Below are positions 5,250-62,323 of a stretch of DNA of 64,000 nucleotides, one piece after another. The stretch's first letter is position 1, and each line of letters starts with the position of its first letter. The notes beneath the pieces were generated by a model. The model had not been told where the DNA came from and did not search any database. It saw only the letters and a list, made by a program, of their open reading frames with translations. Both the position numbers and the translations under genes were made by a program. Origin of the DNA: Escherichia coli (GTDB lineage Bacteria > Pseudomonadota > Gammaproteobacteria > Enterobacterales > Enterobacteriaceae); NCBI RefSeq assembly GCF_036507355.1, contig NZ_AP027877.1. One strand, given 5' to 3'.

Positions 5250-5671
5250 CCTCGCGCATACAGCCGGGCAGTGACGTCATCGTCTGCGCGGAAATGGACG
5301 AACAGTGGGGCTATGTCGGGGCTAAATCGCGCCAGCGCTGGCTGTTTTACGCGTATGACAGGCTCCGGAAGACGGTTGTTGCGCACGTATTCGGTGAACG
5401 CACGATGGCGACGCTGGGGCGTCTTATGAGCCTGCTGTCACCCTTTGACGTGGTGATATGGATGACGGATGGCTGGCCGCTGTATGAATCCCGCCTGAAG
5501 GGAAAGCTGCACGTAATCAGCAAGCGATATACGCAGCGAATTGAGCGGCATAACCTGAATCTGAGGCAGCACCTGGCACGGCTGGGACGGAAGTCGCTGT
5601 CGTTCTCAAAATCGGTGGAGCTGCATGACAAAGTCATCGGGCATTATCTGAACATAAAACACTATCAATAA
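5168..5671 (+). CDS. insB: IS1 InsB reading frame (transposase catalytic part, expressed by -1 frameshift from insA)
   Basis: 167-aa ORF in -1 frame overlapping the insA 3' end, typical IS1 organisation. Confidence 0.85.
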
Positions 5672-32811: not shown

Positions 32812-33513
32812 ATGACTCAATACGTATTCGAACCGCAAGCGCCCGTTACCGTACCGGTTGTTGGCAGTGATGAACAATTCCCCGTGCGCCGCGTTTACTG
32901 CGTCGGACGTAACTATGCCGCTCACGCCCGCGAAATGGGCTTTGATCCGGATCGTGAACCGCCATTCTTCTTCTGCAAACCGGCGGATGCCGTTGTTCCG
33001 GTTGCCGCTGGTGAAACGCTGGCGCTGCCGTATCCGGCACAGACCGATAACTACCATTACGAAATTGAACTGGTGGTGGCGATTGGTAAAAAAGGCAGCG
33101 ATATCCCGCTGGAACACGCCCATGAATATGTCTGGGGTTATGCCACGGGTCTTGATATGACTCGGCGTGACCGTCAAATGGAAATGCGCCAGATGGGCCG
33201 CCCGTGGGAAATCGGTAAAGCGTTTGATCTCTCAGCGCCCATCGCGCCGCTGCACAAAGCCCGCGATATCGGCGGTATTGATAATGCGCCAATCTGGTTA
33301 CAGGTTAACGGCGAAGATCATCAGCGCAGCGATATTCGCCATCTCATCTGGTCGGTGAATGAAACCATCAGCTATCTGTCAGGCTTCTTTGAGCTGCAAC
33401 CGGGCGATCTGATCTTCACCGGTACGCCGGAAGGGGTTGGCCCGGTAGTGAAAGGTGATGTGATCACAGGCAACGTCGAGGGCTTAACGCCTATCGCGGT
33501 GAAGATTGTCTGA
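32812..33513 (+). CDS. mhbH: fumarylpyruvate hydrolase (FAH family)
   Basis: 233-aa ORF with FAH-fold signatures ([14 protein letters not shown]; [10 protein letters not shown]). Confidence 0.75.
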
Positions 33514-33518
33514 GGTGC

Positions 33519-34166
33519 ATGATGAAGCTGTACAGTTTTTTTAATAGTTCAGCGTCGTACCGGGTACGCATTGCGCTGGCGCTGAAAGGCATTAATTACC
33601 AGACCGAAGGGGTGAATATCCGTATTGGTCAGCAAAATGAACTGGCCTATCGGCGGATGAATCCGGTCGGGCTGGTGCCGACGCTGCTGACTGACGAGGG
33701 CGAATCACTCGGACAATCGCTGGCGATTATTGACTGGCTGGAGAGGCACTACCCGCAAGTTCCGCTGGTGCCGCAGGAAGAGCCGGCCCGCAACAAGGTG
33801 CTGGAAATTGTCTATGCCATCGCTTGTGATATTCATCCATTGAATAACTTGCGCGTGCTGCGCTACCTGACCGAAGAACTGAACGTCAGTGAAGAAGAAA
33901 AAAAACGTTGGTATGCGCACTGGATCCAGCAAGGGTTAAGCGCGGTGGAACAACTGTTGCGCCAGAACCAGTCGGGGCAATTTTGTGTGGGCGAGACGCC
34001 GACGCTGGCAGATTGCTGCCTTGTCCCGCAGTGGGCGAACGCGCTACGCATGAACTGCGATTTGAGCGGGTATCCACGCTGCAAAGCGGTGTACGACGCC
34101 TGCACACAGCTGCCAGCGTTCATTGCCGCAGCGCCAGAAAATCAACAAGATAAAATTTCAGCCTGA
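33519..34166 (+). CDS. mhbI: maleylpyruvate isomerase (glutathione S-transferase zeta-like)
   Basis: 215-aa ORF with GST N-terminal fold (MKLYSFFNSSASYRVRIAL). Confidence 0.75.
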   Translation: MMKLYSFFNSSASYRVRIALALKGINYQTEGVNIRIGQQNELAYRRMNPVGLVPTLLTDEGESLGQSLAIIDWLERHYPQVPLVPQEEPARNKVLEIVYAIACDIHPLNNLRVLRYLTEELNVSEEEKKRWYAHWIQQGLSAVEQLLRQNQSGQFCVGETPTLADCCLVPQWANALRMNCDLSGYPRCKAVYDACTQLPAFIAAAPENQQDKISA

Positions 34167-34180
34167 CCAGGAGAACTATA

Positions 34181-35374
34181 ATGACGAAAGTGACACGCGC
34201 AGTAATTGTGGGAGGCGGGATCGGCGGTGCGGCAACTGCGCTGTCACTGGCCCGCCTGGGGATCAAAGTGGTGCTGCTGGAAAAGGCGCATGAGATCGGT
34301 GAGATTGGCGCGGGCATCCAGTTGGGGCCAAATGCGTTTTCGGCGCTGGACAGCCTCGGCGTCGGCGAAGTTGCCCGCCAGCGCGCGGTGTTTACCGATC
34401 ACATTACCATGATGGATGCGGTGAACGCCGAAGAAGTGGTGTGCATTGAAACCGGGCAGGCTTTTCGTGACCATTTCGGCGGCCCTTACGCGGTGATCCA
34501 CCGGGTTGATATTCACGCCTCGGTGTGGGAAGCGGTACTGACGCATCCGGACGTGGAATATCACACCTCCACCAACGTCGTGGATATTCGCGAGACGGAA
34601 GACGATGTCACCGTGTTTGACGATCGCGGCAATAGCTGGACCGGCGATATTCTGATTGGCTGTGACGGCGTGAAGTCAGTGGTGCGCCAGAGCTTATTGG
34701 GCGATGCGCCGCGTGTCACCGGACATGTTGTCTACCGTGCGGTTATCGATCGTGCCGATATGCCGGAAGATTTGCGCATTAACGCACCGGTACTGTGGGC
34801 GGGGCCGCATTGTCACTTGGTGCATTACCCTTTGCGCGGCGGCAAGCAGTATAACCTGGTGGTAACATTCCACAGCCGCCAGCAGGAAGAGTGGGGCGTG
34901 AAGGATGGTAGTAAAGAGGAAGTGCTCTCTTACTTTGAAGGGATTCACCCCCGTCCGCGCCAGATGTTGGATAAACCGACTTCATGGCGACGCTGGTCAA
35001 CCGCTGACCGTGAACCGGTGGCGAAGTGGGGAACGAAGCGCATAACGCTTGTGGGCGATTCGGCCCATCCGGTGGCGCAATATATGGCGCAGGGAGCCTG
35101 TATGGCGCTGGAAGATGCAGTAACGCTGGGTAAGGCGCTGGCGCAGTGTGAGGGTGATGCGGCGCAAGCCTTTGCGCTGTATGAGTCGGTACGAATTCCG
35201 CGCACCGCGCGCATCGTCTGGTCGACCCGTGAAATGGGGCGGGTTTACCACGCCGCAGGGGTAGAACGCCAGGTACGTAATCTGCTGTGGAAAGGGAAAT
35301 CGCAGGCAGAATTTTATCGCGGCATGGAGTGGTTGTACGGCTGGAAAGAAGATAACTGTTTGCAACCACGCTAA
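34181..35374 (+). CDS. mhbM: 3-hydroxybenzoate 6-hydroxylase (FAD-dependent monooxygenase)
   Basis: 397-aa ORF with N-terminal FAD-binding GxGxxG (VIVGGGIGGAATAL) and flavin monooxygenase core. Confidence 0.8.
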   Translation: MTKVTRAVIVGGGIGGAATALSLARLGIKVVLLEKAHEIGEIGAGIQLGPNAFSALDSLGVGEVARQRAVFTDHITMMDAVNAEEVVCIETGQAFRDHFGGPYAVIHRVDIHASVWEAVLTHPDVEYHTSTNVVDIRETEDDVTVFDDRGNSWTGDILIGCDGVKSVVRQSLLGDAPRVTGHVVYRAVIDRADMPEDLRINAPVLWAGPHCHLVHYPLRGGKQYNLVVTFHSRQQEEWGVKDGSKEEVLSYFEGIHPRPRQMLDKPTSWRRWSTADREPVAKWGTKRITLVGDSAHPVAQYMAQGACMALEDAVTLGKALAQCEGDAAQAFALYESVRIPRTARIVWSTREMGRVYHAAGVERQVRNLLWKGKSQAEFYRGMEWLYGWKEDNCLQPR

Positions 35375-35533: not shown

Positions 35534-36484
35534 ATGCGTGTGTTACTGGCTCCGATGGAGGGAGTGCTTGACTCTCTGGTGCGTGAATTGCTGACCGAAG
35601 TTAACGACTACGATCTGTGCATCACCGAGTTCGTCCGCGTGGTGGATCAACTGCTGCCGGTGAAAGTCTTTCATCGCATTTGCCCTGAGCTACAAAACGC
35701 CAGCCGGACACCATCCGGTACGCTGGTGCGCGTGCAGTTGTTGGGTCAGTTCCCACAATGGCTGGCAGAGAACGCCGCCCGTGCGGTGGAATTAGGTTCC
35801 TGGGGCGTGGATCTCAATTGCGGCTGCCCGTCGAAAACGGTTAACGGTAGCGGTGGTGGGGCGACGTTACTCAAAGATCCTGAACTCATCTACCAGGGTG
35901 CAAAAGCGATGCGTGAAGCTGTACCGGCGCATTTGCCCGTCAGCGTGAAAGTGCGTCTGGGCTGGGACAGCGGTGAGAAGAAATTTGAAATCGCCGATGC
36001 GGTTCAACAGGCTGGTGCTACGGAGCTGGTGGTGCATGGACGGACAAAAGAGCAGGGTTACCGCGCGGAGCATATTGACTGGCAGGCGATTGGCGAGATT
36101 CGCCAGCGGCTGAATATTCCGGTGATTGCCAACGGCGAAATCTGGGACTGGCAGAGCGCGCAACAATGCATGGCGATCAGCGGCTGCGACTCAGTGATGA
36201 TTGGTCGCGGGGCGCTCAATATTCCCAACCTGAGCCGGGTAGTAAAATATAACGAACCGCGAATGCCGTGGCCGGAGGTGGTTGCTTTGCTGCAAAAATA
36301 TACCCGTCTGGAAAAGCAGGGCGATACCGGGTTATATCACGTAGCGCGGATTAAACAGTGGTTGAGTTATTTGCGTAAAGAATACGATGAAGCAACAGAA
36401 TTATTTCAGCATGTTCGTGTGTTGAATAATTCCCCTGATATTGCAAGGGCTATTCAGGCAATTGATATCGGTAAGCTGCGATAA
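35534..36484 (+). CDS. dusC: tRNA-dihydrouridine(16) synthase
   Basis: ORF 35477..36484 trimmed to [21 protein letters not shown]... (~316 aa); Dus-family TIM barrel. Confidence 0.9.
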
Positions 36485-36871
36485 TAGTGGAATCGCAGTT
36501 TATCAGAGACAATGAATCGCTTATTCAGCTTCATCATCTTGTTGCGCTCCTTTCATGAGCTAAGCCACATATTGCCACTGGCGCAAGGAGCGCGCAGGGG
36601 GAGGACAATCGCCTCCTCCCCCTGCACCCCCGGGCTCTGGCGAACAAAATCGCCGCTGCGCGGTACCTTCAGCTTATCCCCTTCGGCTACCGGGTCGGGC
36701 GCGAGGAAACGTCCTTGTAAGACGCGCCCTCAGCCCACATCCATGTGGGCTGCCCCGGCCTTCGGGGAACGCTTCAGCGATTTTGACGCCACCAACACCG
36801 GAGCTGTTTGCAAATCAAGTACACAAAATATCTAGTTCCTGACCTGACAACTTATATGTCATATCTGATTT

Positions 36872-36955
36872 TTAAAATATCATCTTAAATACGCCAGTCA
36901 CCACCAGTAGCCCAATCAGGAAAATAATCAATACAGCCCAGAGTATAATTTTCAT
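36872..36955 (-). CDS. yohP: small single-TM membrane protein (27 aa)
   Basis: Read from sequence: MKIILWAVLIIFLIGLLVVTGVFKMIF with RBS-like AAGGAACGCC upstream; below the 60-aa track cutoff; matches recalled YohP. Confidence 0.8.
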   Translation of the reverse strand: MKIILWAVLIIFLIGLLVVTGVFKMIF

Positions 36956-37178
36956 TGGCGTTCCTTTATTTGTGAGTGCTGAATAAGTATAGGAAAAAAC
37001 GAAGCCCTTTGCCGTTATCCATAAACGATTAAGATAAATCGGAAGATATCATTCACTTAGTGTATATTTTTCTGGATATGTCGTTTTATTGCTACTGATG
37101 TATTGCCACGCGAAACTAAAAAATATATCGCAACACACGGTAATCTCCGCGCACCTTTTCTTACCTGATTATTCCCCC

Positions 37179-38615
37179 ATGAATCGTGATTCCTTTTATC
37201 CAGCCATCGCCTGTTTTCCGCTGTTACTGATGCTGGCCGGGTGTGCGCCTATGCATGAAACCCGCCAGGCGTTAAGCCAGCAAACGCCCGCTGCACAAGT
37301 TGACACCGCATTACCCACGGCGCTGAAAAATGGTTGGCCAGACAGCCAATGGTGGCTGGAGTATCACGATAATCAACTCACTTCCTTAATTAACAATGCA
37401 CTACAGAACGCACCGGATATGCAGGTGGCTGAACAGCGCATTCAGTTAGCTGAAGCCCAGGCGAAGGCAGTTGCTACTCAGGATGGTCCGCAGATCGACT
37501 TTTCTGCGGATATGGAGCGGCAAAAAATGTCGGCAGAAGGGCTAATGGGGCCGTTTGCTCTGAACGATCCGGCCGCAGGTACGACCGGTCCGTGGTACAC
37601 CAACGGAACTTTTGGCTTAACGGCGGGCTGGCATCTCGATATCTGGGGAAAGAATCGGGCGGAGGTTACTGCCCGCCTGGGTACGGTTAAAGCACGGGCG
37701 GCGGAACGCGAGCAAACCCGCCAATTGCTGGCTGGCAGCGTAGCCCGCCTGTACTGGGAGTGGCAAACCCAGGCGGCGTTAAACACGGTCTTGCAGCAAA
37801 TCGAAAAAGAGCAGAACACCATTATCGCGACCGATCGCCAGCTATATCAGAACGGGATTACTTCTTCAGTTGAAGGTGTGGAAACCGATATTAATGCCAG
37901 CAAAACCCGGCAGCAGCTCAACGATGTCGCGGGGAAAATGAAAATTATTGAGGCACGGTTAAGCGCACTTACAAATCACCAGACAAAGTCATTGAAGCTT
38001 AAACCGGTCGCGTTGCCGAAAGTGGCAAGCCAGCTTCCTGATGAACTGGGGTACTCCTTACTGGCCCGGCGGGCAGATTTGCAGGCGGCGCACTGGTACG
38101 TTGAGTCATCGCTAAGCACCATTGATGCGGCAAAAGCGGCATTTTATCCTGACATCAACCTGATGGCCTTCCTGCAACAGGATGCGTTGCACTTAAGCGA
38201 TCTGTTCCGTCATTCCGCGCAGCAAATGGGCGTTACGGCAGGCCTGACGCTACCCATTTTCGATAGTGGTCGTCTTAACGCCAATCTCGATATCGCAAAA
38301 GCTGAAAGCAACTTGTCTATCGCCAGCTACAACAAAGCGGTGGTTGAAGCGGTGAATGACGTGGCGCGGACAGCCAGTCAGGTTCAGACACTTGCGGAGA
38401 AAAACCAGCATCAGGCGCAAATTGAGCGCGATGCCTTGCGTGTGGTAGGTCTTGCGCAGGCGCGCTTTAACGCGGGCATCATTGCTGGTTCCCGCGTCAG
38501 CGAAGCCAGAATCCCCGCGTTGCGTGAGCGGGCCAATGGCCTGTTATTGCAAGGGCAGTGGCTGGATGCCTCCATTCAACTCACTGGTGCGTTGGGCGGG
38601 GGTTACAAACGCTGA
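37179..38615 (+). CDS. mdtQ: outer-membrane efflux lipoprotein (OMF/NodT family), apparently intact
   Basis: ORF 37089..38615 trimmed to MNRDSFYPAIACFPLLLMLAGC (lipoprotein signal, LAGC lipobox), 478 aa, uninterrupted. Confidence 0.8.
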   Translation: MNRDSFYPAIACFPLLLMLAGCAPMHETRQALSQQTPAAQVDTALPTALKNGWPDSQWWLEYHDNQLTSLINNALQNAPDMQVAEQRIQLAEAQAKAVATQDGPQIDFSADMERQKMSAEGLMGPFALNDPAAGTTGPWYTNGTFGLTAGWHLDIWGKNRAEVTARLGTVKARAAEREQTRQLLAGSVARLYWEWQTQAALNTVLQQIEKEQNTIIATDRQLYQNGITSSVEGVETDINASKTRQQLNDVAGKMKIIEARLSALTNHQTKSLKLKPVALPKVASQLPDELGYSLLARRADLQAAHWYVESSLSTIDAAKAAFYPDINLMAFLQQDALHLSDLFRHSAQQMGVTAGLTLPIFDSGRLNANLDIAKAESNLSIASYNKAVVEAVNDVARTASQVQTLAEKNQHQAQIERDALRVVGLAQARFNAGIIAGSRVSEARIPALRERANGLLLQGQWLDASIQLTGALGGGYKR

Positions 38616-49492: not shown

Positions 49493-50224
49493 ATGAAGAT
49501 GTTGCGCGATCCGCTGTTCTGGCTCATTGCTCTTTTTGTGGCGCTGATTTTCTGGCTACCTTACAGCCAGCCGCTTTTTGCTGCCTTGTTCCCACAACTG
49601 CCACGACCCGTTTATCAGCAAGAAAGTTTTGCCGCTCTGGCACTGGCTCATTTCTGGCTGGTGGGAATTTCGAGTTTGTTTGCGGTGATCATTGGTACTG
49701 GTGCCGGAATTGCAGTCACTCGCCCGTGGGGCGCGGAATTTCGCCCACTGGTGGAAACTATTGCTGCCGTTGGACAGACTTTTCCGCCCGTCGCGGTGCT
49801 GGCGATCGCCGTTCCGGTGATCGGGTTTGGTCTGCAACCAGCGATTATCGCCTTGATCCTTTACGGTGTGCTGCCCGTCCTGCAGGCGACACTTGCCGGG
49901 CTGGGAGCGATTGATGCCAGCGTGACAGAAGTTGCGAAAGGTATGGGAATGAGTCGAGGTCAGCGACTGCGTAAGGTCGAGCTACCGCTGGCGGCTCCGG
50001 TGATTCTGGCGGGCGTGCGAACTTCGGTGATTATCAACATTGGTACGGCGACGATCGCCTCAACGGTAGGGGCCAGCACGCTGGGTACGCCCATCATCAT
50101 CGGGCTTAGCGGATTTAATACCGCGTATGTGATCCAGGGGGCGTTACTGGTGGCACTGGCGGCGATCATCGCAGACCGCCTGTTTGAAAGGCTGGTGCAG
50201 GCGCTTAGCCAGCACGCAAAATAA
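49493..50224 (+). CDS. yehW: ABC transporter permease
   Basis: 243-aa membrane ORF. Confidence 0.9.
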
Positions 50225-50312
50225 AGGTATAACCTGCGAGCATGACGCCACCAATTCCGCCTAACGCCATAAACAGGAACAGGGCGATGACCCCAATTTT
50301 AGCTATGCGCAT
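50205..50312 (-). CDS. yohO: small membrane protein (35 aa)
   Basis: Read from sequence: [35 protein letters not shown]; below track cutoff; 3' end overlaps the yehW 3' end by ~20 nt (convergent). Confidence 0.75.
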
Positions 50313-61625: not shown

Positions 61626-61806
61626 CCAGACCGTTGGGACGTTGCGCCGGATCGGACCAATTTTAAGTCCTGGCTACCGGACGGGTGGTGCTGCAGGTGG
61701 TGCCCTGATCCGGAGTGCAACATCGTGGTCCAACATACGTAAACCAGTATCGACAGGCAGTGTAAGGGTAAGGTGCTGGTGTTGCGCTCCTTAATAAGGA
61801 GAGCGG

Positions 61807-61896
61807 ATGGACACGCTGACACAAAAGTTAACCGTGCTCATTGCTGTACTGGAGCTATTAGTAGCTCTGTTACGGTTGATTGATTTGTTGAAGTAA
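61807..61896 (+). CDS. zorO: type I toxin ZorO (29-aa hydrophobic membrane peptide)
   Basis: Read from sequence: AAGGAG RBS then ATG...MDTLTQKLTVLIAVLELLVALLRLIDLLK; matches recalled ZorO of enterohaemorrhagic E. coli; below track cutoff. Confidence 0.8.
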   Translation: MDTLTQKLTVLIAVLELLVALLRLIDLLK

Positions 61897-61919
61897 CGGG
61901 CAAATTGAAACGCATCTAA

Positions 61920-61942
61920 GGGGGAAAACCGCTTCCCCCTTT
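61920..61942 (+). terminator. rho-independent terminator of zorO
   Basis: GGGGGAA-aaccgc-TTCCCCC hairpin followed by TTT. Confidence 0.5.
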
Positions 61943-61950
61943 AATAAAGC

Positions 61951-62005
61951 TATACTCGTCATATTTCAAGTTGCATGTGCTGCGACTTGAATTATCTAGA
62001 GTATA
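61951..62005. repeat. short ERIC-like element (terminal arms only)
   Basis: TATACTCGTCATATTTCAAGTTGCATGTGCTGCG...GAATTATCTAGAGTATA matches the outer arms of the full ERIC at 25744..25869 but lacks the central core. Confidence 0.5.
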
Positions 62006-62323
62006 TTATTCTATTTCTTGGTTGAATATATTCTGTAGTTCACGATTAAAAATTGCTATTACAGTTTCAGGTGATTCACCTCGTAATTTCCGCTCATCAA
62101 TACACTCATCTCTTATATAAATCAACGCATCATTTATTAGCGGGTCAGCATCTTCTCGATCACGTTGATGAAATGTTGGATGTAGCCGGAATCGCTCCAG
62201 TCGATAGACGGAACCTGTAAATAATTCAGAGCATTTATGGATCTCAAGTCTGAAGGAAAACGGATCTTCAGGTACAGGGACCTCATAATCGTAAATAGCA
62301 ACTAGCTCTTTTTGCACGATCAT
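62006..62323 (-). CDS. yehK: small protein of unknown function
   Basis: 105-aa ORF MIVQKELVAIYDYEVPVPEDPFSF...; sits between yehI and the zorO insertion. Confidence 0.8.
   Translation of the reverse strand: MIVQKELVAIYDYEVPVPEDPFSFRLEIHKCSELFTGSVYRLERFRLHPTFHQRDREDADPLINDALIYIRDECIDERKLRGESPETVIAIFNRELQNIFNQEIE

Follow-up and report, generated by a model that had tools for sequence, protein, structure and literature searches.

A 27-residue frame between dusC and mdtQ of Escherichia coli corresponds to the small membrane protein gene yohP

YohP and comparable small proteins

YohP of Escherichia coli is an integral protein of the inner membrane, as judged from fractionation and carbonate resistance, and adopts mainly the N-out/C-in orientation (PMC7549839); its discovery was reported in Hemm 2008 and Hemm 2010, cited here through the reference list of PMC7549839. 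The protein forms SDS-resistant dimers that need Gly15 (PMC7549839) and that, according to published data, are lost upon the K24E substitution. After its translation it is recognised by SRP/FtsY and then inserted through SecYEG or YidC, and yohP mRNA is found at the membrane independently of translation (PMC7549839). [quoted passage not shown] YohP already serves as a model for SRP-dependent post-translational insertion and for the mRNA targeting of very small membrane proteins.

As for the physiological role, production of YohP leads to sub-lethal depolarisation, the phage-shock response and an increase in cardiolipin, as well as to (p)ppGpp accumulation, a decrease in global protein synthesis, nucleoid condensation and “metabolic silencing” (PMC12719787, PMC12542507), and the protein has been proposed as a stationary-phase “metabolic silencing” factor. 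The data on depolarisation and silencing were mostly obtained by expressing YohP from a plasmid prematurely, during exponential phase, which the authors themselves state as a limitation; the native stationary-phase level of YohP equals the plasmid level (PMC12719787). Deletion of yohP makes cells more sensitive to ciprofloxacin and oxidative stress, and the deletion phenotypes are only mild (PMC12719787).

Several other small proteins resemble YohP. YncL, YkgR and YohO share with it a length of less than 50 aa, one transmembrane helix flanked by basic residues, and induction by stress. Like YohP, YncL causes depolarisation and nucleoid condensation (PMC12542507), and YkgR also contacts SRP (PMC7549839). 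However, these three proteins show no sequence homology to YohP and belong to separate families with separate curated models. TisB and ZorO are likewise small hydrophobic inner-membrane peptides that lower the membrane potential. Each of these two is paired with a dedicated antitoxin sRNA, is encoded by an mRNA with a long regulatory 5′ UTR, and is growth-arresting or lethal on expression, whereas for YohP no antitoxin was detected, the leader is apparently short, the effect is sub-lethal and the native level is high.

The yohP locus and its conservation

The window analysed here, a stretch of 64,000 nucleotides of the E. coli contig NZ_AP027877.1, contains a frame at 36872..36955 on the minus strand with the product MKIILWAVLIIFLIGLLVVTGVFKMIF. 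Direct reading of the sequence places the ATG start codon at 36955..36953 and the TAA stop codon, which follows 27 codons, at 36874..36872. A Shine-Dalgarno sequence, AAGGA, was read directly at 36962..36966 (minus strand), and the ATG lies 6 nt further on. The gene is convergent with dusC (35534..36484, plus strand) and divergent from mdtQ (37179..38615, plus strand), from which it is separated by 223 bp. The ORF listing thus returned exactly the 27-aa minus-strand frame proposed by the first-pass annotation, and its placing of the frame upstream of mdtQ behind a plausible ribosome-binding site proved correct. The order dusC, yohP, mdtQ is the same in K-12; in the window mdtQ is intact and encodes 478 aa, whereas in K-12 it is a pseudogene. 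The neighbourhood also differs beyond dusC, where the window contains a gentisate-pathway (gentisate-degradation) cluster and K-12 contains yohJK.

Since 17 ORFs of at least 20 aa were found in the 900 bp around yohP, and 741 ORFs of 20–60 aa in the whole window, a short ORF by itself is no evidence of a gene. Among these 741 ORFs, the yohP frame has the highest hydrophobicity. Its best 19-residue Kyte-Doolittle window, IILWAVLIIFLIGLLVVTG, scores 2.96, and the GRAVY value of the peptide is 2.47; over 30 shuffled windows the highest value was 2.68, below that of this frame. The peptide contains a single hydrophobic transmembrane segment, in agreement with the topology suggested earlier for this frame, and the segment is flanked by Lys2 and Lys24, as described for YohP (PMC7549839, PMC12542507). 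The ORF consists of 40% T compared with 24% across the window, which fits the uracil bias tied in the literature to membrane targeting of mRNA.

The name YohP, given from the letters alone, was confirmed by curated protein models. The peptide matched the NCBIfam equivalog model NF011345 “small membrane protein YohP” over residues 1–27 of 27 with 67.3 bits (cutoff 58), and the Pfam family PF25659 YohP with 50.6 bits (cutoff 27). An exact-sequence look-up of the peptide gave the names “protein YohP” and “Uncharacterized membrane protein YohP”. Several E. coli O157:H7 chromosomes match the 701 bases of the window at 36600..37300 with 100% identity, and their RefSeq records annotate exactly this ORF as yohP, “small membrane protein YohP”. 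The equivalent gene of K-12 MG1655 is b4679; its ORF is identical to that of the window in nucleotide and amino acid sequence, and the ~230 nt 5′ of its ATG, including the Shine-Dalgarno sequence and the element CCTATACT discussed below, are the same but for one base. A 104-nt query comprising the ORF and the Shine-Dalgarno sequence was found at ≥95% identity in 5421 of 5426 complete E. coli genomes and at 5423 places in all, indicating that yohP is essentially single-copy.

We therefore assign the frame at 36872..36955, with a probability of about 93%, to yohP, which is conserved in enterobacteria and encodes a single-pass inner-membrane protein of 27 residues. Every testable defining feature of YohP was found, and the gene is YohP itself, not a relative. 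No evidence speaks against this identity; such weaknesses as there are lie on the side of mechanism.

Conservation outside E. coli was assessed with a degenerate back-translation of codons 1–12, for which a single genome of each species was scanned; this returned 26 loci. In total, 28 loci from Escherichia, Citrobacter, Atlantibacter, Cedecea, Buttiauxella and Enterobacter-like strains were compared. The search pattern fixed most of codons 1–12, so that the sample comprises close orthologues only, and codons 13–27 constitute the unbiased evidence. The Salmonella yohP gene gave no match to this pattern and consequently differs somewhere in codons 1–12.

All 28 loci have 27 codons and a fixed stop position, while the stop codon itself varies among TAA, TGA and TAG. 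Within codons 13–27, there are 4, 1 and 13 variable sites at codon positions 1, 2 and 3, respectively, and the pooled pS and pN values are 0.64 and 0.04, giving a ratio of 0.06. The 84-nt flanks of the gene show 20–36% identity when compared ungapped, i.e., a nearly random level. Only three residues vary across the loci (V8I, L13I, and M25A); K2, G15, G21 and K24 are invariant in all 28, as is the whole sequence IGLLVVTGV (residues 14–22, with Gly15 and Gly21), the codons of which were unconstrained by the search pattern. The third-position bias, the low pN/pS ratio, the fixed length and the random-level flanks indicate that the frame is protein-coding and under strong purifying selection, and that a translated constrained peptide rather than an RNA element is conserved here.

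The mdtQ–yohP–dusC synteny has been stated previously (PMC12719787). In our sample, dusC is convergent with yohP in Escherichia, Citrobacter and Atlantibacter, and lies close to its 3′ end in the latter two genera; a homologue of mdtQ was found 5′ of yohP in Escherichia and in several Buttiauxella loci.

As regards annotation, the first-pass claim that the gene had been missed holds for the first-stage ORF list with its cutoff of 60 aa and does not hold for public annotation, since RefSeq contains yohP. Two further genes of the window fall under the same cutoff. One is yohO (35 aa, 50205..50312, minus strand), which matched NF010225 with 80.1 bits; the other is zorO, the exact 29-aa ZorO type I toxin peptide being encoded at 61807..61896 (plus strand). 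A cutoff of 60 aa therefore hides genuine, studied genes, namely yohP, yohO and zorO in one window. The first of these was recovered correctly from a reading of the raw sequence.

Expression signals and function

A candidate −10 element of yohP, CCTATACT, is located at 36986..36993 (minus strand); it comprises TATACT at 36991..36986 and a C at −13 and is of the sigma-S type, the features of which are described in PMC5437024. The element is invariant in all 28 loci of the six genera, at a distance of 30–39 nt 5′ of the ATG, while the remaining upstream sequence is unalignable and no conserved −35 element accompanies it. A GGA, GAG or AGG motif is also retained 5–14 nt 5′ of the ATG in 27 of the 28 loci, in diverged surroundings. 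A scan with the sigma-70 consensus revealed no promoter on the yohP strand. Judging from the position of the −10 element, transcription probably starts near 36979, which would give a 5′ UTR of ~24 nt. A scan for intrinsic terminators detected none after yohP in the window or in K-12.

The predicted sigma-S-type motif fits the published sigma-S dependence of the Salmonella gene. In Salmonella Typhimurium, the “coding sRNA” STnc1330 is the yohP mRNA, containing the orthologous small ORF, and 3xFlag-YohP reaches a high level in stationary phase but can hardly be detected when rpoS is mutated (PMC5437024); this RpoS and stationary-phase dependence matches the invariant −10 element found here. In K-12, yohP-SPA at the native chromosomal promoter is increased in stationary phase, in minimal medium and under oxygen limitation, and the previously reported induction by SDS/EDTA and H2O2 was not seen again (PMC12719787). 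These two tagging studies, of yohP-SPA in K-12 (PMC12719787) and of 3xFlag-YohP in Salmonella (PMC5437024), already supply the epitope-tagging evidence of translation that had been suggested as a check on the frame.

Because the coding sequence and ~230 nt upstream match K-12, with a single differing base far upstream, the O157-type allele of the window probably behaves as the K-12 allele. If so, the gene would be transcribed mainly in stationary phase or under nutrient limitation, with RpoS dependence as in Salmonella. The peptide would be bound by SRP/FtsY after translation and inserted via SecYEG or YidC, mainly in the N-out/C-in orientation; by an alternative route, it would be translated from mRNA already located at the membrane. 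YohP would then dimerise and, at a high level, cause a sub-lethal fall in membrane potential followed by the phage-shock response, (p)ppGpp accumulation and nucleoid condensation.

The sub-lethal depolarisation could also be read in another way, with YohP being the toxin of an unrecognised type I toxin–antitoxin pair and an antisense or divergent small RNA restraining it; we consider this highly improbable. YohP is indeed small and hydrophobic, its overproduction lowers the membrane potential and condenses the nucleoid, and its effects have been compared by the authors with those of TisB and antimicrobial peptides (PMC12719787, PMC12542507). The genuine zorO in the same window indicates that genes of this kind occur in the region. 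Moreover, a sigma-70-like site, ATGTCA-16-TATCAT, with 9 of 12 matches, lies antisense to the 3′ end of yohP at 36856..36883 (plus strand), and its K-12 counterpart, ATGACA-16-TATCAT, has 10 of 12 matches. However, such a site is at chance level (one found versus 1.4–1.8 expected in shuffles), and its −10 hexamer is not conserved in other genera, where codons 25–27 use other synonymous codons. On either strand of 36300..37400, no Rfam family was detected except for a weak match in the downstream repeat. The fold of 36790..36980 (minus strand) has an energy of −38.9 kcal/mol and a z-score of 0.33, which was at least equalled by 121 of 200 shuffles, so that this mRNA region shows no unusual degree of structure, and the predicted yohP leader of ~24 nt contrasts with type I toxin mRNAs, whose leaders are long and structured, as in the 174-nt 5′ UTR of zorO (PMC5397157). 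A toxin is also difficult to reconcile with a sub-lethal effect and a native stationary-phase level equal to that reached from a plasmid (PMC12719787), and with a gene that occurs once, in a syntenic position, in nearly every E. coli genome.

Slightly less probable still is an interpretation in which YohP chiefly serves a specific larger membrane protein, as its accessory subunit or modulator, MdtQ or its pump being a candidate, and depolarisation is a side effect of over-expression. Precedents exist in AcrZ–AcrB and MgtS–MgtA, and many characterised small membrane proteins act in this way (PMC12719787). The divergent position of yohP 223 bp from an intact mdtQ would suit such a role, as would the predominance of induced expression among the functional data and the finding that YohP hinders oligomerisation of magainin-2 in the membrane (PMC12542507). 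On the other hand, no partner protein is reported in PMC7549839, PMC10066597, PMC12719787, PMC12542507 or PMC5437024. MdtQ is an outer-membrane protein, whereas YohP resides in the inner membrane. In K-12, mdtQ is a pseudogene, yet yohP is fully conserved and expressed there, and the flanking sequence retrieved for yohP of Citrobacter, Atlantibacter and Cedecea revealed no homologue of mdtQ. A functional coupling of yohP and mdtQ was rejected on account of the K-12 pseudogene and the absence of a homologue from the fetched flanks of several genera.

Finally, a non-coding small RNA or a chance untranslated frame, although short ORFs are abundant by chance (741 of 20–60 aa in the window) and STnc1330 was first catalogued as a non-coding sRNA (PMC5437024), is extremely improbable in view of the third-position bias, the pN/pS of 0.06 in the unbiased codons, the fixed 27 codons, the interchangeable stop codons, the conserved Shine-Dalgarno sequence, and the tagged protein obtained from the native chromosomal locus in E. 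coli (PMC12719787) and Salmonella (PMC5437024). A dual role of the yohP transcript as mRNA and regulatory RNA has no support. The assignment of the frame to yohP, encoding the described inner-membrane protein, is retained.

The dispersed repeat downstream of yohP

In Escherichia, the gap between yohP and dusC is ~375–390 bp long and is mostly filled by a structured dispersed repeat of ~275 bp, which in the window occupies ~36525..36800 (minus strand), its sense strand being the same as that of yohP. The repeat is present in 2–8 copies per E. coli genome, and other copies are found between aqpZ and lysO, putP and efeU, and copA and ybaP. At the yohP locus, the repeat is inverted in K-12 relative to the window and its short flanks differ too; because of this opposite orientation and the different flanks, the two sequences part 5 nt past the yohP stop codon. 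The same polymorphism of two orientations was observed at aqpZ–lysO.

The arrangement of the window occurs in ~2000 complete genomes: the 701-nt query is covered to at least 80% in 2002 of them, and 1999 carry a copy of the repeat at ≥95% identity. Most of the remaining genomes are presumably K-12-like. In the K-12-like records that were checked (e.g., g94 and TUM1509), it was the aqpZ–lysO copy, and not the one adjacent to yohP, that matched the repeat best. Other genera have a different organisation of this region. In Buttiauxella, Cedecea and their relatives, yohP is succeeded within ~10 nt by a canonical terminator consisting of GGGTGCCAC...GTGGCACCC and then a T-run, and in Citrobacter and Atlantibacter the dusC stop codon is just 27–45 nt from that of yohP.

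The repeat folds far better than its shuffled versions; the z-scores of the two strands are −4.8 and −5.9. The consensus structure contains 79 pairs, four of which show compensatory changes, and several C–G to U–G changes keep the pairing only on the minus strand.

A comparison with Rfam revealed a full-length match to the TwoAYGGAY model (RF01731) on the minus strand at 36647..36786. Its score of 25.9 bits (E = 0.056 in a 331-nt search) is below the gathering score of 43, and membership of the repeat in this family was rejected on this ground. According to the supplement of Weinberg 2010, the TwoAYGGAY motif consists of a pair of neighbouring hairpins, both with AYGGAY in the terminal loop, and of the enclosing stem P1; its members are multi-copy in the gammaproteobacterium NC_008709. 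In the repeat, hairpin 1 (CCCAC-AUGGAU-GUGGG) fits this motif, whereas hairpin 2 carries ACAAGGAC in the window and ACAGGGAU in other copies, neither of which corresponds to AYGGAY. An enclosing stem around the hairpins is predicted, with part support from compensatory changes.

Binding of CsrA has been proposed for TwoAYGGAY itself (PMC4333381). The SELEX consensus of CsrA is RUACARGGAUGU, and binding is best when GGA lies in a hairpin loop (PMC4347634). Both hairpins of the repeat are similar to this consensus and to high-affinity CsrA sites. Hairpin 1, CCACAUGGAUGU, shares 9 of its 12 positions, with ACA as well as GGA retained; for hairpin 2, the agreement is 10 of 12 in the window (UUACAAGGACGU) and 11 of 12 in other copies (UUACAGGGAUGU).

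Other identities of the repeat were considered. BoxC/TMECO was rejected, as the repeat does not contain the consensus CCCTCNCCC...GGGNGAGGG; the old “RSA” repeat, of 150 bp and with six copies in K-12, was also considered. Two ORFs, one of 107 aa at 36512..36835 (plus strand) and one of 27 aa at 36454..36537 (minus strand), overlap the repeat or its end; RefSeq annotates neither of them, they are unconserved between copies, and both were treated as spurious.

Since no terminator intervenes, the repeat may form the 3′ region of yohP. It is conceivable, though unlikely, that in Escherichia the structured repeat has replaced the yohP terminator of other genera, and that read-through would generate 3′ UTRs specific to the strain type, perhaps with CsrA-dependent control of stability or translation in one type only.

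YohP was already known, and the biology of the protein itself gains nothing new from this locus. The repeat found in opposite orientation at the same locus among strains is the only material perhaps worth a separate follow-up. If the above scenario were true, K-12-like strains and strains of the window type would provide a sigma-S-dependent depolarising peptide with different 3′ UTRs.

A structured dispersed repeat between yohP and dusC

The gap between yohP (36872..36955, minus strand) and dusC (35534..36484, plus strand) contains a structured dispersed repeat of ~275 bp, located at about 36525..36800 of the window with its sense on the minus strand. E. coli genomes carry 2-8 copies of this repeat, and further copies were found at aqpZ-lysO, putP-efeU and copA-ybaP. 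The consensus fold comprises 79 pairs, 4 of which show compensatory changes. According to the Rfam comparison, the TwoAYGGAY family matches the repeat over its full length with a score below the threshold (25.9 bits vs. 43). In addition, two hairpins of the repeat resemble the CsrA SELEX consensus RUACARGGAUGU. BoxC/TMECO was considered as the identity of the repeat and was rejected; the old 'RSA' repeat is a further candidate.

The orientation of the repeat at the yohP-dusC locus is opposite in some other E. coli strains, as seen when 36485..36871 of the window is compared with positions 5067-5438 of L028, the corresponding locus of K-12. The arrangement of the window is common to ~2000 complete genomes, a count made for this arrangement only. 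Both orientations also occur at a second, independent locus, aqpZ-lysO (compare the aqpZ-lysO loci L029 and L031). Where oppositely oriented repeats occupy one locus, their short flanks are non-homologous between strains. The two-orientation pattern looks like the result of cassette replacement or re-insertion, rather than of clean inversion.

Two open reading frames overlap the repeat, neither of which is annotated in RefSeq. A 107-aa ORF is located completely over the repeat (36512..36835, plus strand), and a 27-aa ORF (36454..36537, minus strand) starts at the conserved AAAGGAGCGCAAC end of the repeat, at which a hairpin occludes an SD-like sequence. The short ORFs that begin at the AAAGGAGCGCAAC end of the repeat are entirely different from copy to copy; judging from this comparison of the copies, both repeat-overlapping ORFs are likely to be spurious.

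The 3' end of yohP

No intrinsic terminator is detectable after yohP in Escherichia, either in the window (36790..36871) or in K-12. In Buttiauxella and Cedecea, a canonical terminator, GGGTGCCAC...GTGGCACCC-T-run, is located within ~10 nt past yohP. In Citrobacter and Atlantibacter, the distance from yohP to the dusC stop codon is only 27-45 nt.

A sigma-70-like site, ATGTCA-16-TATCAT (9/12 matches), lies on the plus strand at 36856..36883, antisense to the 3' end of yohP, and its K-12 counterpart is ATGACA-16-TATCAT (10/12). Sites of this kind are no more numerous at yohP than in shuffled sequence, and other genera have not kept the -10 hexamer, indicating that the antisense site has probably arisen by chance.

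Neighboring genes and comparison with other strains

On the other side of yohP, the window carries an intact mdtQ gene (37179..38615, plus strand) that encodes a 478-aa outer-membrane lipoprotein with a lipobox-like N-terminus (…LLMLAGC), whereas mdtQ of K-12 MG1655 is annotated as a pseudogene. A gentisate-pathway cluster is located directly upstream of dusC on the plus strand (32812..33513, 33522..34166 and 34181..35374, extending up to about 35374). Its products are gentisate 1,2-dioxygenase, a fumarylacetoacetate-hydrolase family protein, maleylacetoacetate isomerase and 3-hydroxybenzoate 6-monooxygenase. In K-12, yohJ-yohK adjoin dusC in place of this cluster, which is thus a strain-variable island.

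The surroundings of yohP in the window show 100% identity to O157:H7 records. For the yehK/zorO region (61650..62050), by contrast, complete E. coli genomes match at 99.0% at best, O55:H7 among them. In the O157:H7 record NZ_AP018488.1, a prophage that is not collinear with the window lies beside mlrA. The strain from which the window comes is hence not simply one of the O157:H7 genomes listed.

Small-protein genes below the ORF cutoff

A 29-aa ORF near yehK (61807..61896, plus strand) encodes MDTLTQKLTVLIAVLELLVALLRLIDLLK, a peptide identical to the ZorO type I toxin published for E. coli O157:H7 (z3289). No entry for this ORF was found among the RefSeq features of the matching region. A second gene, yohO (50205..50312, minus strand, 35 aa), is a known small membrane protein gene; its product matches NCBIfam NF010225 with 80.1 bits (cutoff 57). 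Both zorO and yohO encode products shorter than the 60-aa cutoff and were hence hidden from the first-stage ORF list.
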